Assembly (NCBI GenBank): GCA_963773715.1
Contig: CAVZCM010000001.1
Coordinates: 201,676 to 265,675 of the forward strand
Direction of reading: 5' to 3'
DNA length: 64,000 bases
DNA from: an uncultured Pseudomonadota bacterium
GTDB lineage: Bacteria > Pseudomonadota > Alphaproteobacteria > Rhizobiales > Xanthobacteraceae
Of the stretch, positions 47,945-53,176 are shown piece by piece. Position 1 is the stretch's first letter, and each line of letters begins with the position of its first letter. The notes beneath the pieces were generated by a model. The model was given only the letters and a program-made list of their open reading frames with translations. It was not told the DNA's origin and searched no databases. The position numbers were made by a program, and so were the translations under genes.

Positions 47945-50275
47945 ATGCCTTCCATGAATATGATTCCTCCCGCCCGCACCCGGAAACAGCCGCGCGTCGA
48001 AGACGACGCGCTGGTACGCGGCGCCGGCCATTTCGTCGACGATCCAAGGCTGCCGAATCAGGCCTATGCCGCCTTCGTGCGCTCGCCGCATGCGCATGCC
48101 CGCATCATCTCGGTAAATACCAGCGAGGCGCAGGCCGCCAGGGGCGTGCTGGCAGTGCTTACGGCCGAGGACATCAAGGCGGCCGGGGTCGCCGGCATCT
48201 CGCGTCACCCGCCGGCGGTCGGCCGCGGTGGCGCCAGGATGGTCGTGCCGTTCCGCCCCGCGCTTGCCGGCGACAAGGTGCTGCATGGTGGCGATCCGGT
48301 CGCGATTGTGGTGGCGGAAGACGCCGCCATGGCGCTCGACGCCGCCGATCTGGTGCAGGTCGAGTATGAGGAACTGCCGGCGGTGATCGACCTCGACGCC
48401 GCGATGAAGGGCGAGACGCAGCTCCACGCGGACGTACCCGGCAATCTCTGCATCGATTGGCCAGGGTGGGCCGAGAACGCGGAGAACGAGCGCGAGGTCG
48501 CCGATATCATCGCCGGGGCGCCGCATGTCGCACGGGTATCCGTCACCCATCAGCGTCTGGTGGTAGCCTCCCTGGAAACGCGCGGTGCCACCGGCGTCTA
48601 CGACGCCGCCAACGAGAGCTACACGCTGCACGCCTGCTCGCAGAGCGCGGATGCACTACGCGGCCAGCTGGCCTCCATCATGGGAGTGGCGAAGGAAAAA
48701 GCGCGCGTGATCACCGAGGACGTCGGCGGCGCCTTCGGCATGAAGACGACGGTCTATCCGGAATACGTCGCCGTGCTGGTGGCTGCGCGCAAGATCGGGC
48801 GGCCGGTGCATTGGCAGTCGACGCGCTCGGAAGCCTTCGTCTCCGACGCCCAGGCGCGCGATGCGCTGACCCACGTCGAGCTCGCGCTCGACGACAAGGG
48901 CAAATTCCTGGGACTACGCGTGCGACACCTGTGCAACCAGGGCGCCTACATTGCCAATGCCGGCATTAACATCAACACCAACAATTTCGCGCGCTGTTTC
49001 CCCGGCATGTACCGGGTTCCGAAGGTCGACGTGGGTGTGGCCTGCTATTTCTCCAACAAGGTGCCGATCGCGCCCTATCGCGGCGCCGGCCGGCCGGAGG
49101 CGAATTACGCCCTTGAGCGCGCGGTAGAGGAAGCCGCGCGCCTCATCGGCATCGACTCGGTGAGGCTGCGCAAGAAGAACCTGATCCCGAAATCGGCGAT
49201 GCCGTTCAAGACTCCGATCAACACCTACGACAGCGGCGATTTCCCCGGCATCGTGGACAAGGCCTTGCAGCTTGCCGACTACGCCAGTTTCAACAAGCGC
49301 AAGCGCGAGGCGGCCAGGCGCAAGAAATACCGCGGCATCGGCATCTCCTGCATGCTGGAGCACGCCGGCGCCACGCCCATGGAAATGGCGTCGCTGGCGT
49401 TTCCCGAGGGCGACAAGCTGATCATGGGCCTGAACGTGCAATCGACGGGACAGAGCCACGCCACCGTGTTCGGGCGGCTGCTGGCGAACAAGCTCGGCAT
49501 CGATCCGGCGAAAATCGAGCACAGCCACGGCGACACGGCGCTGGGCCTGACCGGCGGCGCTTCGGTCGGCTCGCGCTCGGCCATGTGCGCGGGTACGGCG
49601 ATCGTGCATGTCGCCGACGTGATGCTCGAAAAAGGCAAAAAAATCGCCGCTTCGCTGCTGGAAGCCGGCGAACACGACATCGAATACAAGAACGGCGCCT
49701 TCAATGTGGTCGGCACCGACCGCAAGATCACCTTGTTCGAAACCGCGCGGCGGGCGAAGGAGCTGGGCCAAAGCCTCGACACCATGGACAAGGCCGAAGC
49801 GCCGCTCACCTTTCCCAACGGTTGCCACATCGCCGAGGTCGAGATCGATCCCGAAACGGGGGCGCTTGACCTCGTCACCTACACGGCGGTGGACGACTGC
49901 GGCAATCCGCTCGACACGATCATCGTCGAGGGCCAGGTGCACGGCAGCCTGGCGCAGGGACTGGGCCAGGCGCTGACGGAACACGCCATCTATGACCCGG
50001 AGACCGGACAGCTCACCACCGGCTCGTTCATGGACTACGGCATGCCGCACGCCGAAATCATGCCGATCGAACTGCGCGAGGCCCTGCACCCGGTGCCGGC
50101 GACCACCAATCCGCTCGGCGTCAAGGGCACCGGCGAAGCCGGCACCACGGCGTCGATCGCGGCGGTGATGAACGCGGTATCAAACGCCATCCCGAACGGC
50201 GCGGCGAATTATATGGAAATGCCGGCGACGCCGGCGCGGGTGTGGGAGGCCTGCCAGAAGGCGCAGGGAAAATAG
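47945..50275 (+). CDS. Xanthine dehydrogenase family molybdopterin-binding large subunit (CoxL form II-like)
   Basis: RVEDDALVRG, DVGGAFGMK, active-site loop APYRGAGRPEA, GQSHAT, VGSRS, DDCG, GVKGTGEAG. Start may be 47954. Confidence 0.9.
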   Translation: MPSMNMIPPARTRKQPRVEDDALVRGAGHFVDDPRLPNQAYAAFVRSPHAHARIISVNTSEAQAARGVLAVLTAEDIKAAGVAGISRHPPAVGRGGARMVVPFRPALAGDKVLHGGDPVAIVVAEDAAMALDAADLVQVEYEELPAVIDLDAAMKGETQLHADVPGNLCIDWPGWAENAENEREVADIIAGAPHVARVSVTHQRLVVASLETRGATGVYDAANESYTLHACSQSADALRGQLASIMGVAKEKARVITEDVGGAFGMKTTVYPEYVAVLVAARKIGRPVHWQSTRSEAFVSDAQARDALTHVELALDDKGKFLGLRVRHLCNQGAYIANAGININTNNFARCFPGMYRVPKVDVGVACYFSNKVPIAPYRGAGRPEANYALERAVEEAARLIGIDSVRLRKKNLIPKSAMPFKTPINTYDSGDFPGIVDKALQLADYASFNKRKREAARRKKYRGIGISCMLEHAGATPMEMASLAFPEGDKLIMGLNVQSTGQSHATVFGRLLANKLGIDPAKIEHSHGDTALGLTGGASVGSRSAMCAGTAIVHVADVMLEKGKKIAASLLEAGEHDIEYKNGAFNVVGTDRKITLFETARRAKELGQSLDTMDKAEAPLTFPNGCHIAEVEIDPETGALDLVTYTAVDDCGNPLDTIIVEGQVHGSLAQGLGQALTEHAIYDPETGQLTTGSFMDYGMPHAEIMPIELREALHPVPATTNPLGVKGTGEAGTTASIAAVMNAVSNAIPNGAANYMEMPATPARVWEACQKAQGK

Positions 50276-50303
50276 CGGCTCTTAGGTGGCAACACACTCG
50301 GCC

Positions 50304-50408
50304 GTCATGCGCGGGCTTGACCCGCGCATCCATGATGCGCGTCGGCACATGAAAGCCTTACGTAAGGCTTTCGTCATCGCACCTCATCATGGATTGCCGG
50401 GTCCAGCC
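50304..50408. repeat. Left part of a REP (GTCATGCGCGGGCTTGACCCGCGCATCC...GGATTGCCGGGTCCAGCC) interrupted by the IS; the right part continues at 51653-51671
   Basis: Joining 50408 to 51662 reconstitutes GGATTGCCGGG-TCCAG-CCCGGCAATGAC, the same family as 3783-3869. Confidence 0.85.
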
Positions 50409-51652
50409 CATGGCTGTCCGGCTAAGCATAGGTGAATTCCATCTGGGGGTTTTGGAGGCTTTGGACTGCCTGGTTTGGGGGGTGCATGAGTTCGTCGAGG
50501 GGGCGTCTTGCGAAGGCCATGGCGGGCAGAAGACGGACGATGGCCTGCATGCCCAGGCTCGTGCGCTGGCGCAGGCTGGCAAGACGCACGAGCAGATAGG
50601 CGATGAGGGCGGCCATGATCTGAATGATCACGGCGTTGCGGCTTGTCCCCAGGAAGTGAGACAGCTTCAGGTTCTGCTTAAGCCATTTGAAGAAGAGCTC
50701 GACCTGCCAGCGCGCCCGATAGAGCGCTGCGATCTCCGCGGCTGGAGCCCCAAGATCGTTGGTAAGAAGCGTGATCTCGCGCGCCCCTTGGATCTTTACG
50801 CCGATGAGGCGCACCTTGCCGGTGAAGGGATTGTGCCGCGAGGAGCCAAGCCGCCTTGAAAGATGTCCGATCCGATCGAACAGAATGCCCTCATCGCGCA
50901 CCTTGCGTTCCTGGACGACGGTGACCGGGGAGTTCTTCTTCGAGCGCGTGACGAACCGGCAGGAGGCGGCGGAAAGCTTCTGCCAGAAGGAAAAATCGTA
51001 ATAGCCCTTGTCGAACACATAGGTCACGCCCGGTTCGATAGGCATCGTCTTGGCGGCCGTGATATCGTTGATACGCTCGCCCGTCACTTCAAACCAGACC
51101 GGGTGCTCCCCTTGCCAATCGAAACTTATGTGCAGCTTCACCGCATCCTGGGCCCAGGCGGCAACCGGCTTGCCGGCAAAGATGCGGCTGGCGTCGATGA
51201 GGCGAACACAGTCGTGCCCCAGCCTTCCGCTCAGCATGGCGCAGAGCTTCTTGGCTACAGCCTCAAACAGGCTCGCGGGCCGGTCTCTGTTGGCATCCGA
51301 AAGCGTCGTGCGCCGCAGCCTGGCGAGCCCCAGATGCGGCAGTATCCCCGCATGCCGCTCGACCATCCGCTCATGATCACGCAGGGAGCGCTGACCCGTC
51401 ATCTGAGCCAGGACCATCGCCACAACATGCCCCCATTGCGAGAGTTCTCGCTTCTTGCGCCCGCTCCGGTGCCGCGCTGCCTCGCGCTCGAACCAGCCGC
51501 GTGGAACCGCTTTGAGCAATTGAGAAAACACCGTAGACTGAAATCGCATGGCTTGGGCTCTCCGAGCTTCATTCAACTCTGTTCGTCGCAAAACACAGTT
51601 GAATCCAGAAGCCATGCACCTCGTCCACCCCTCCCATAGCCGGACAGCCATG
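50409..51652 (-). mobile_element. Complete IS4-family insertion sequence (about 1244 bp)
   Basis: Terminal inverted repeats CATGGCTGTCCGGCTA / TAGCCGGACAGCCATG; flanking direct repeat GGTCCAGCC (50400-50408, 51653-51661); single DDE transposase. Confidence 0.92.
50422..51549 (-). CDS. IS4-family DDE transposase
   Basis: MRFQSTVFSQLL, RLIDAS, VKLH, VFDKGY, YREK-like YRARWQVELFFKWLKQNL. The stop codon lies inside the terminal repeat. Confidence 0.92.
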   Translation of the reverse strand: MRFQSTVFSQLLKAVPRGWFEREAARHRSGRKKRELSQWGHVVAMVLAQMTGQRSLRDHERMVERHAGILPHLGLARLRRTTLSDANRDRPASLFEAVAKKLCAMLSGRLGHDCVRLIDASRIFAGKPVAAWAQDAVKLHISFDWQGEHPVWFEVTGERINDITAAKTMPIEPGVTYVFDKGYYDFSFWQKLSAASCRFVTRSKKNSPVTVVQERKVRDEGILFDRIGHLSRRLGSSRHNPFTGKVRLIGVKIQGAREITLLTNDLGAPAAEIAALYRARWQVELFFKWLKQNLKLSHFLGTSRNAVIIQIMAALIAYLLVRLASLRQRTSLGMQAIVRLLPAMAFARRPLDELMHPPNQAVQSLQNPQMEFTYA

Positions 51653-51697
51653 GGTCCAGCCCGGCAATGACCGCTGAGACGCATGTGCGCACGCAAA

Positions 51698-51729
51698 TAA
51701 AAAATGGCCGGGCAATGCCCGGCCATTTT
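51698..51729 (-). terminator. Rho-independent terminator of the gabD-like gene
   Basis: AAAATGGCCGGGC-aat-GCCCGGCCATTTT, with a T-run on the minus strand. Confidence 0.8.
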
Positions 51730-51748
51730 CATTTCAAATACGCGCGGC

Positions 51749-53176
51749 TCAGCCCTGCGAGATGAACTTGGTGTTCATGTAGGCGTGCAAACCTTCCAAT
51801 CCCCCCTCGGAACCGTAGCCCAACTCCTTGATGCCGCCGAACGGCGTCTCCGGCGTCGAGATGGCGACGCTGTTGACGCCGACCATGCCTGACTGCATCG
51901 CGTCACCGATGGCGGCCGCGTTCTTGTCCGACGTGGTGAAGGCATAGGCCGCCAGGCCGAACTCCAGCGAGTTGGCGCGCTCGACCACCTCGTCGAAGGT
52001 CTTGAACGGCACGATCGGCGCCACCGGCCCGAACGGCTCCTCGGTCATGATCTTCGAGTCATCCGGCACATCGGTGACGATGGTCGGCTGGAAGAAAAAG
52101 CCCTGGTTACCCTCGCGCGAGCCGCCGGTGACGACCTTGCCGCCGCGGCTCCTGGCATCGGCGACGAAGCTGTCCATGGCGTCAAGCCGGCGCGGATTGG
52201 CCAGCGGTCCCATGGTGGTGCCCTTTTCCATGCCGTCGCCGAGCTTGATGCCCCTGGCATATTCGGTGAAACGGGCGAGGAACTTCGGATAGTTCTTCTC
52301 GTGCACATAGAAGCGGGTCGGCGAAATGCAGACCTGACCGGCGTTGCGGTACTTGAAGGCGGCGATGGTGTCGGCCGCCTTCTCCGGATCGGCGTCTTCG
52401 AACACGACCACCGGCGAATGACCGCCGAGCTCCATGGTGGCGCGCTTCATGCCCTTGGCGGCAAGCGCCGCGAGATGCTTGCCGACCGGGACCGAGCCGG
52501 TGAAGGAAATCTTCTTCACGATCTTCGAAGGGATCAGGTACTCCGACACTTCGGAAGGCACGCCGAACACCAGGTTGACCACGCCTGCCGGCAGGCCGGC
52601 ATCGGCGAAACATTTCACCAGTTCGACGCAGGCGCCGGGCGTTTCTTCCGAGGCCTTGAGGATGATCGAGCAGCCGGCGGCGAGCGCGCCGGCGATCTTG
52701 CGCACCGGGGTGAGCACCGGGAAATTCCATGGCGTGAAGGCGGCGACCACGCCGACCGGCTCCTGCGTCACGAGCTGGCGCACGCCGGGCTGCCGGCCCG
52801 GCACGATACGGCCGTAGGCGCGGCGTCCCTCCTCGGCGTACCAGTCGATAATGTCGGCGGATGTGAGCACCTCGGCGCGGGCTTCCGGATAGACCTTGCC
52901 CTGCTCCAGCACCATCACCCTGGAGACGTGCTCATGGCGCTCGCGCAGCAGATCGGCAGCCTTGCGCATCACCCTGGAGCGATCATAAGCGGAGGTCGCT
53001 TTCCATTGGGCGAAGCCCCTGGCGGCGGCGGCCAGTGCGGCGTCGAGATCGGCGGTGCTGGCATGCGGCAGCTGCGCGAGCGGCCTGGCGGTCGCGGGAT
53101 TGAGGACTTCCTCGCCCTTGCGCCCCTTGCCATTGAGCCATTGTCCGTCGATGAAAAGCGCGAGATCGGTGTACAT
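51749..53176 (-). CDS. gabD: NAD-dependent succinate-semialdehyde dehydrogenase-like (second paralog)
   Basis: TPWNFP, FTGSVPVG, MELGGHSP, NAGQVCISP, EEPFGP, PFGGIKELGYGSEGG. Confidence 0.82.
   Translation of the reverse strand: MYTDLALFIDGQWLNGKGRKGEEVLNPATARPLAQLPHASTADLDAALAAAARGFAQWKATSAYDRSRVMRKAADLLRERHEHVSRVMVLEQGKVYPEARAEVLTSADIIDWYAEEGRRAYGRIVPGRQPGVRQLVTQEPVGVVAAFTPWNFPVLTPVRKIAGALAAGCSIILKASEETPGACVELVKCFADAGLPAGVVNLVFGVPSEVSEYLIPSKIVKKISFTGSVPVGKHLAALAAKGMKRATMELGGHSPVVVFEDADPEKAADTIAAFKYRNAGQVCISPTRFYVHEKNYPKFLARFTEYARGIKLGDGMEKGTTMGPLANPRRLDAMDSFVADARSRGGKVVTGGSREGNQGFFFQPTIVTDVPDDSKIMTEEPFGPVAPIVPFKTFDEVVERANSLEFGLAAYAFTTSDKNAAAIGDAMQSGMVGVNSVAISTPETPFGGIKELGYGSEGGLEGLHAYMNTKFISQG

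Follow-up and report, generated by a model that had tools for sequence, protein, structure and literature searches.

Described palindrome-targeting elements and the element in the window

Insertion sequences (IS) with a specificity for repetitive extragenic palindromes (REPs) are known from the IS3, IS110 and IS4 families. The IS4 case is ISRm22. In S. meliloti 1021 all copies of this element lie in REPs, inserted "just at the palindromy axis", and REP targeting was thereby extended to the IS4 family (Tobes and Pareja, 2006; PMC1525189). In the supplementary alignment of that study its ends read CAGGGCTGTCCGGGGAAAG, and the flanking repeats have 9 bp (e.g., CCGCTCGCG; PMC1525189). ISRm22 was later placed in the subgroup IS4Sa, where its "spectacular apparent insertion specificity" was pointed out (De Palmenaer et al., 2008; PMC2266710). 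Here we analyzed a related element in a stretch of 64,000 nucleotides (nt), called the window in the following, from an uncultured bacterium of the Xanthobacteraceae (GenBank assembly GCA_963773715.1, contig CAVZCM010000001.1, positions 201,676 to 265,675). It is inserted at the apex of a hairpin that resembles a REP. From the sequences compared here, we estimate a probability of about 85% that it is an intact IS4Sa element which transposed into this apex by a choice of site, with a 9-bp target duplication.

The window element resembles ISRm22 in several respects. Both carry a single DDE/YREK transposase of about 375-385 amino acids (aa) in an element of about 1.3 kb. The end core CA.GGCTGTCCGG is common to both, and every copy is flanked by 9-bp repeats and centered on the dyad of a GC-rich REP palindrome. 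For the pSymB copy of ISRm22 we found the published ends and a 9-bp repeat CCGCCTGCG within CCCTCTCCCCGC-CT-GCGGGGAGAGGG. The amino acid identity of the two transposases is only 38%, however, and the target of ISRm22 is CCCTCTCCCCGC...GCGGGGAGAGGG instead of GCCGGG-N5-CCCGGC. Further differences concern the inner ends (GGGGAAAG in ISRm22, CTAAG in the window element), the host, which belongs to the Rhizobiaceae in the case of ISRm22, and the copy number (about 10 versus 2).

Other elements share single features. IS231A from Bacillus thuringiensis has the target motif GGGNNNNNCCC and an 11-bp duplication (PMC2577343, Table 1). Like the window element it combines a symmetric GGG-N5-CCC core with CAT ends and a cut-and-paste DDE/YREK transposase (PMC2577343; PMC2266710). 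Its duplication spans the whole GGG-N5-CCC, whereas that of the window element has 9 bp. In addition, it belongs to another subgroup (IS231) and naturally prefers a target other than REPs. Tn10/IS10 and Tn5/IS50 are IS4-family elements with 9-bp duplications and symmetric target consensus sequences (GNNGCTNAGCNNC; AGNTYWRANCT), which are read by a symmetric transpososome (PMC2577343). In contrast to the window element, they show a loose hot-spot preference and no dependence on a repeated palindrome, and they have CT ends and belong to distant subgroups. Specific insertion into REPs or the palindromes of bacterial interspersed mosaic elements was described for IS1397 and ISKpn1 (IS3) and for IS621, ISPa11, ISPpu9 and ISPpu10 (IS110) (PMC1525189). 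The enzymes of these elements are unrelated to the window transposase. The IS3 elements move by copy-out-paste-in and leave 3-4-bp repeats, the IS110 elements use DEDD recombinases and leave 2-bp or no repeats, and the insertion point of either group does not lie in a 9-bp segment centered on the loop. REP targeting by IS3 and IS110 elements was mentioned in an earlier note on this DNA, which was made from the sequence alone. It is documented (PMC1525189), but the note omitted the IS4 case ISRm22 (PMC1525189, PMC2266710).

Insertion at the apex of a REP-like hairpin

Excision of the element together with one copy of GGTCCAGCC restores the hairpin TTGCCGGG-TCCAG-CCCGGCAA, which has a stem of 8 bp and a loop of 5 nt. 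The order at the junctions is ...CATCATGGATTGCCG, GGTCCAGCC, element, GGTCCAGCC, CGGCAATGAC, with the duplication directly outside both ends. This base-for-base reading agrees with the earlier note, which had placed the element exactly in the loop of a REP hairpin. The note was also right about the terminal inverted repeats. In a reading of positions 50100-51900, CATGGCTGTCCGGCTA and its exact reverse complement agree without mismatch over 16 bp, and in the second copy of the genome the perfect match of the inverted ends extends over 18 bp. The hairpin hit by the element forms the right-hand unit of a doublet of about 115 bp, composed of a left unit, a spacer bearing a palindrome, and the inverted right unit CATCATGGAT-TGCCGGG-TCCAG-CCCGGCA-ATGAC. 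Since the doublet is located between two convergent genes, no gene was disrupted by the insertion.

Because the target is palindromic, the duplication can be read as 5, 7, 9 or 11 bp. Relatives at non-palindromic sites (L057, L058, L060, L063, L067 and others) show exact 9-bp repeats abutting CA...TG ends, the 9-bp repeats of the ISRm22-type copies L032 and L022 are not extendable, and the 11-bp reading is ruled out by L039. By comparison with these relatives, the target duplication is therefore read as 9 bp, a length that falls in the range of the IS4 family (about one helix turn, 8-13 bp). The earlier note had recognized the ambiguity and preferred 9 bp with CAT ends; the 9-bp reading with CA ends is correct.

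The genome (G000; 4.47 Mb in 10 contigs) holds exactly two copies of the element. The second copy (L002) is found on contig 4 (G000:C4:502239-503480) at the same position of a hairpin TTGCCGGG-TCAAG-CCCGGCAA; its orientation to the repeat is opposite to that of the window copy. Its duplication is GGTCAAGCC, in the context ...CATGGATTGCCG, GGTCAAGCC, IS, GGTCAAGCC, CGGCAATGAC. The duplicated 9-mer and its loop differ between the two loci (TCCAG versus TCAAG), yet they are the same on both sides of each copy. This is the mark of a local target duplication and excludes hairpin halves that are carried by the element or gene-converted. Three substitutions and one 2-bp indel distinguish the copies, whose encoded proteins are identical. 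Two of the three substitutions and the indel are located in the leader region between the transposase gene and its proximal inverted repeat, and the third substitution is synonymous within the coding sequence. The exact hairpin variant used by the element is present three times in the genome, and only one further intact copy is unoccupied (C3:327583-327618).

For the identification of empty sites, the joined flanks were compared with 60 congeneric genomes. In the congener G455 (L122, G455:C216) the orthologous intergenic region contains a complete doublet with an uninterrupted terminal hairpin. In the congeners G423 and G437 (L123, L125) the stop codon is followed directly by the terminator hairpin, without a doublet. 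The doublet was thus present first and the IS came later. Judging from this distribution, the doublet was acquired by an ancestor that only part of the genus shares, and the IS was added in the lineage of the window. No near-identical copy of the element was detected in 150 congeneric or 400 family genomes. By these comparisons the element is a recent acquisition, and it is probably still active.

Element ends were located and flanks were read in relatives from family genomes, genus genomes, a genome collection and metagenome contigs. In 42 of the 44 loci of the window clade with at least one readable flank, the insertion occupies the same apex position of a homologous hairpin. These apex insertions occur in both orientations and in many genera, and the duplication of each one matches its local site. 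Oriented by the repeat, the targets have the consensus tgGAT-ngcCG-GG-tcaag-CC-CGgcn-ATgac. The inner CGGG/CCCG is conserved to at least 90% across the window-clade targets, and the outer stem varies with compensation. The element lies about equally often in either orientation relative to the repeat (9 versus 11), which fits recognition of the symmetric portion of the site. Since both genomic copies and 42 of 44 relatives are inserted at the same hairpin nucleotide, the site is chosen at insertion, with a precision of a single nucleotide, and is not the outcome of later selection. Copies in random non-REP sites, which the earlier note had named as evidence that would speak against its reading, were thus not the pattern observed. 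A search of metagenome contigs for the exact 16-mer of the IS end yielded 120 stretches, none of which encodes a transposase homologue; they are chance matches.

Some of the relatives show unusual arrangements. In L044 (CAVWVG010000003.1) two related IS are arranged head to tail with only the 9-bp GGCTTGTCC between them, and the second copy starts right after the duplication of the first. In L043 and L115 the flanks are reverse complements (GGACAAGCC and GGCTTGTCC) instead of direct repeats. Such flanks would be expected either from inversion or recombination between copies in opposed repeats or from chimeric assembly of short contigs. It was also considered that the IS ends might mimic a half-site of the target, as GGCTGTCCGG resembles GGCTTGTCCCGG by eye. 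Alignment of the ends with own and foreign targets gave no dominance of the diagonal, with p values of about 0.04-0.05 against shuffled sequences in only two of seven groups, and the idea was discarded.

The clade, its transposase and the repeat family

A maximum-likelihood tree was calculated for 82 transposases, for which the frame of the tblastn match was used as sequence. It is split with 99% support into groups of 39 and 43 rows. On the 39-row side, which includes ISRm22 as well as the window element, 22 rows are inserted in GGG-N5-CCC hairpins, 8 were scored in other palindromes, and 9 were classified as "unclear" or "non-palindromic" by the automatic rule. Inspection of these nine revealed palindromes in several cases (e.g., L032 and L072) and none in others (L024, L034). 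On the 43-row side, 29 rows have clean 9-bp repeats at non-palindromic sites, one lies in a palindrome, and 13 show no clean 9-bp repeat.

The window element belongs to a clade of 24 rows (97% support), 22 of which target GGG-N5-CCC hairpins. The sister group of this clade comprises the lineages of the ISRm22 type, of Thiomicrorhabdus, of Pseudomonas lyxosi and of a Rhodobiaceae genome. The Thiomicrorhabdus and Pseudomonas lyxosi elements are the gammaproteobacterial members of the sister lineage and use palindromes of their own (TCACCAGG/CCTGGTGA and TTCCCACGC/GCGTGGGAA, respectively). In Thiomicrorhabdus sp. Milos-T2 (L059, L065) both copies are placed centrally in the palindromic repeat TCACCAGGCCTGGTGA of the host, and in Pseudomonas lyxosi (L094, L096) both are placed centrally in the host repeat TTCCCACGC-TCT-GCGTGGGAA. 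As read from the tree and the flanks, apex targeting is a trait of one transposase clade including ISRm22, and the sequence specificity has shifted between its lineages. The palindrome-targeting clade shares a deletion of three residues in the stretch that links the N-terminal domain to the first catalytic Asp. Position 95 is Phe in this clade and Tyr in the non-targeting clade. The region of residues about 95-115, encoded at about 51205-51267 on the minus strand of the window, is a possible lead to the determinant of specificity.

The window transposase contains a DUF4372 domain followed by DDE_Tnp_1 (PF01609, E = 1.4e-26; Pfam). Its catalytic residues are D119, D185 and E284. The YREK signature Y-(2)-R-(3)-E-(6)-K in region C1, by which the IS4 family is defined (PMC2266710), corresponds to Y277, R280, E284 and K291. 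In an alignment of the window transposase with 17 relatives, D119, D185 and E284 as well as Y277-x2-R280-x3-E284-x6-K291 are invariant. The NCBIfam model NF033592 (transpos_IS4_1) matches with 207 bits against a cut-off of 115, and the remaining IS family models all stay below their own cut-offs. The subgroup IS4Sa is characterized by a length of 1150-1750 bp, ends of the form CA------T and a duplication of 8-10 bp (PMC2266710, Table 1). The window element has 1,244 bp, the end CATGGCTGT with CA at positions 1-2 and T at position 9, and the 9-bp duplication. Its transposase clusters with the ISRm22-type copies L032 and L034 (99% support), and the tree includes no further named member of IS4Sa. 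Among 5.8 billion proteins the closest is 93% identical, unnamed and encoded on a short metagenome contig, followed by proteins with 77% and 74% identity. The closest named elements, in a comparison with elements on plasmids, are ISRel1 (42%) and ISRm16/ISRm22 (38%). To judge from these identities, the element probably lacks a registered name. The earlier assignment to the IS4 family as a possibly new member agrees with these results, as does the view that the transposase is intact. It is encoded by a single open frame without frameshift, with the catalytic and YREK residues kept, and both genomic copies encode the same protein. A structure model from an 18-sequence alignment reached a mean pLDDT of only 52.8, too low for a fold search, and a profile search of the PDB sequences detected no solved relative of the transposase.

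The open reading frame (ORF) listed for this region (50422..51732, minus strand, 436 aa) begins outside the element at 51732. In all relatives the transposase starts with MRFQSTVF, an internal position of this ORF, and the gene was therefore delimited as given in Table 1. The frame remains open for 61 codons upstream (51550-51732, minus strand), across the inverted repeat and into the terminator hairpin. This extension was rejected as real coding sequence and looks accidental, because the 2-bp indel of the second copy interrupts the frame. At the other end of the gene, the TAG stop codon coincides with the final 3 nt of the inverted repeat on the low-coordinate side. A scan for promoter and terminator consensus sequences gave no matches, including no sigma-70 match in the leader region. 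An Rfam scan gave nothing above threshold, and its weak sub-threshold matches all fell on the terminator hairpin.

The genome contains 57 hairpins of the type GGG-N5-CCC whose stem has 7 bp or more, compared to 9-11 in Markov controls. About 45 of them follow the plan (GTC)AT-NNCCGGG-N5-CCCGGNN-AT(GAC), with ATGGCCGGGACAAGCCCGGCCAT as the commonest form. The earlier note had called the REPs abundant, a term which these numbers do not support. Like REPs, the repeats are short, extragenic, imperfect and repeated palindromes, and the inspected sites are intergenic. They do not reach the hundreds of copies of REPs, with only tens in this genome. A Y1/RAYT gene (PF01797) was not found in the genome, which is 97% complete, while the positive controls worked. 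We therefore use the term REP-like instead of RAYT-associated REP. The restored doublet is predicted to form three stems as single-stranded DNA (-37.4 kcal/mol, z = -7.5 versus shuffled sequences). Its left unit recurs at C4:502133 and C3:1216752.

Among the congeners, the doublet itself is present or absent at the orthologous intergenic site. Its behavior is thus that of a mobile or indel unit, even though a RAYT gene was not detected in the genome. Another copy of the doublet (G000:C3:1216752-1216920) has a unique insert of 63 bp in the terminal hairpin between CCGGG and TCAAG. This insert is off the insertion position of the IS, has no IS-like ends and has no other full copy in the genome. 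The terminator-like hairpin next to the window doublet is bidirectional and is kept in congeners without the doublet. For this reason, and because it shares the stem architecture of the repeats, terminators may be the source or a relative of the repeat family.

Table 1. Positions of the element, its target and adjacent features in the window.
Feature	Position	Strand	Remarks
Left unit of the inverted REP-like doublet	50304..50337		GTCAT-GCGCGGG-CTTGA-CCCGCGC-ATCCATGATG; hairpin in the fold
Spacer palindrome GAAAGCCTTACGTAAGGCTTTC	50351..50372		10-bp stem at the center when the restored doublet is folded as DNA
Left half of the right REP unit	50385..50408		CATCATGGATTGCCG + GGTCCAGCC; target arm and first 9-bp repeat
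Left copy of the 9-bp target duplication GGTCCAGCC	50400..50408		five loop nt with two stem bp on either side
IS element	50409..51652	minus	1,244 bp; IS4 family, subgroup IS4Sa; sequence reading and comparison of copies
Transposase-distal terminal inverted repeat CATGGCTGTCCGGCTA	50409..50424	none	contains the transposase stop codon (50422-50424)
Transposase gene	51549..50422	minus	375 aa; DUF4372, then DDE_Tnp_1 (Pfam)
Untranslated leader or promoter region	51550..51636	minus	between transposase gene and proximal inverted repeat
Transposase-proximal terminal inverted repeat TAGCCGGACAGCCATG	51637..51652	none	sequence reading
Right copy of the 9-bp target duplication GGTCCAGCC	51653..51661		sequence reading
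Right half of the right REP unit	51653..51671		GGTCCAGCC + CGGCAATGAC; sequence, genomic repeats and congener
Terminator-like hairpin ATGGCCGGG-CAATG-CCCGGCCAT	51695..51717		between convergent genes; GGG-N5-CCC, unoccupied

Recognition of the site and its meaning for the clade

As to how the apex would be found, we lean slightly towards a reading of the palindrome half-sites as duplex DNA. A two-fold symmetric transposase dimer, holding both excised ends, would recognize the half-sites of the core CGGG-N5-CCCG and would join one 3' end to each target strand, at positions that are 9 bp apart and equidistant from the dyad. Tn10, Tn5 and IS231A prefer symmetric target motifs (PMC2577343, Table 1) in this manner, and a preference for symmetric sites would follow from the two-fold symmetry of the transpososome itself.

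Several observations weigh against a choice of site as described here. The case for targeting is built on extant insertions. Two of the 44 loci are exceptions, namely L039, with a degenerate hairpin, and L008, with an unrelated non-REP flank. The window element has only two copies, both in the rarer ATTGCC variant of the stem and not in the commoner ATGGCC variant, which may reflect a finer specificity or chance. A GGG-N5-CCC hairpin with the loop CAATG about 40 bp away (51695-51717) is unoccupied, so that not every such hairpin is used. Finally, the compensation in the stem cannot separate a reading of the sequence from a reading of the structure, because it is inherent to the evolution of REPs.

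A possible but doubtful alternative to duplex reading, raised already in the earlier note, is that the choice of site is directed by structure. The transposase or transpososome would recognize an extruded hairpin or cruciform, or a single-stranded hairpin at the replication fork, and would cut symmetrically around its tip, with the sequence being secondary. The sub-lineages of ISRm22, Thiomicrorhabdus and Pseudomonas lyxosi use unrelated palindromes and always their center, as would be expected in this case, and the strong predicted single-stranded fold of the restored doublet points in the same direction. The compensated variation at outer stem positions of the targets has been counted in favor as well, but it is expected from REP evolution anyway. 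On the other hand, Tn5 and Tn10 act on duplex targets and have symmetric motifs without the need for a hairpin (PMC2577343). The strong conservation of the inner core in the targets of the window clade also speaks for the sequence, as does the stable neighboring hairpin, which has the same architecture with another loop and is unoccupied.

Random insertion, followed by the survival of only those copies that lie in harmless intergenic repeats, is very improbable. In its favor, an insertion into the doublets, with their location between convergent genes, is likely to be neutral. Survival cannot, however, yield a placement exact to the nucleotide at the dyad in 42 of 44 independent insertions across genera. 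Furthermore, copies elsewhere in intergenic DNA were not found, and the sister clade persists at ordinary sites. Equally improbable is that the hairpin halves are long inverted ends of the element or that recombination or gene conversion, and not transposition, carried it from repeat to repeat. On a palindromic target, the flanks TTGCCGGG... and ...CCCGGCAA are mutually inverted and lengthen the apparent ends, and the flanks of L043 and L115 look as after recombination between copies. However, empty hairpins exist, including the orthologous site of the congener, the loops of the two genomic copies differ and match on both sides of each, and relatives with the same end motif have 9-bp duplications of unrelated sequence.

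For the genome of the window, the choice of the apex by the IS4Sa element is a matter of routine annotation. The IS causes no damage, as its insertion falls in intergenic repeats. The presence and absence of doublets among the congeners indicates that repeat and IS form a two-layer mobile system. Targeting of the REP apex in the IS4 family was already published for ISRm22, and what is added here is a clade-wide trait with differing palindromes. The single published case becomes a trait at the level of a clade with a clear phylogenetic boundary, in which about 40 elements are inserted at hairpin tips, exact to the nucleotide, and the nearest relatives are not. The contrast between targeting and non-targeting transposases offers a ready comparison for finding the part of a Tn5-like transposase that selects the target, and it can be used to test if the transposase reads the shape of the DNA or its sequence. 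In a more speculative reading, which we consider rather unlikely, the IS4Sa clade of Alphaproteobacteria with its offshoots in Gammaproteobacteria would have a heritable apex specificity that was repeatedly re-aimed at different palindromes, possibly via recognition of an extruded hairpin or cruciform. If structure recognition were true, target capture directed by structure would be seen for the first time in a Tn5-like cut-and-paste transposase. The clade would then represent a series of "safe-harbour" transposases that were re-targeted in nature, and a candidate determinant would lie close to the clade-specific deletion of three residues.

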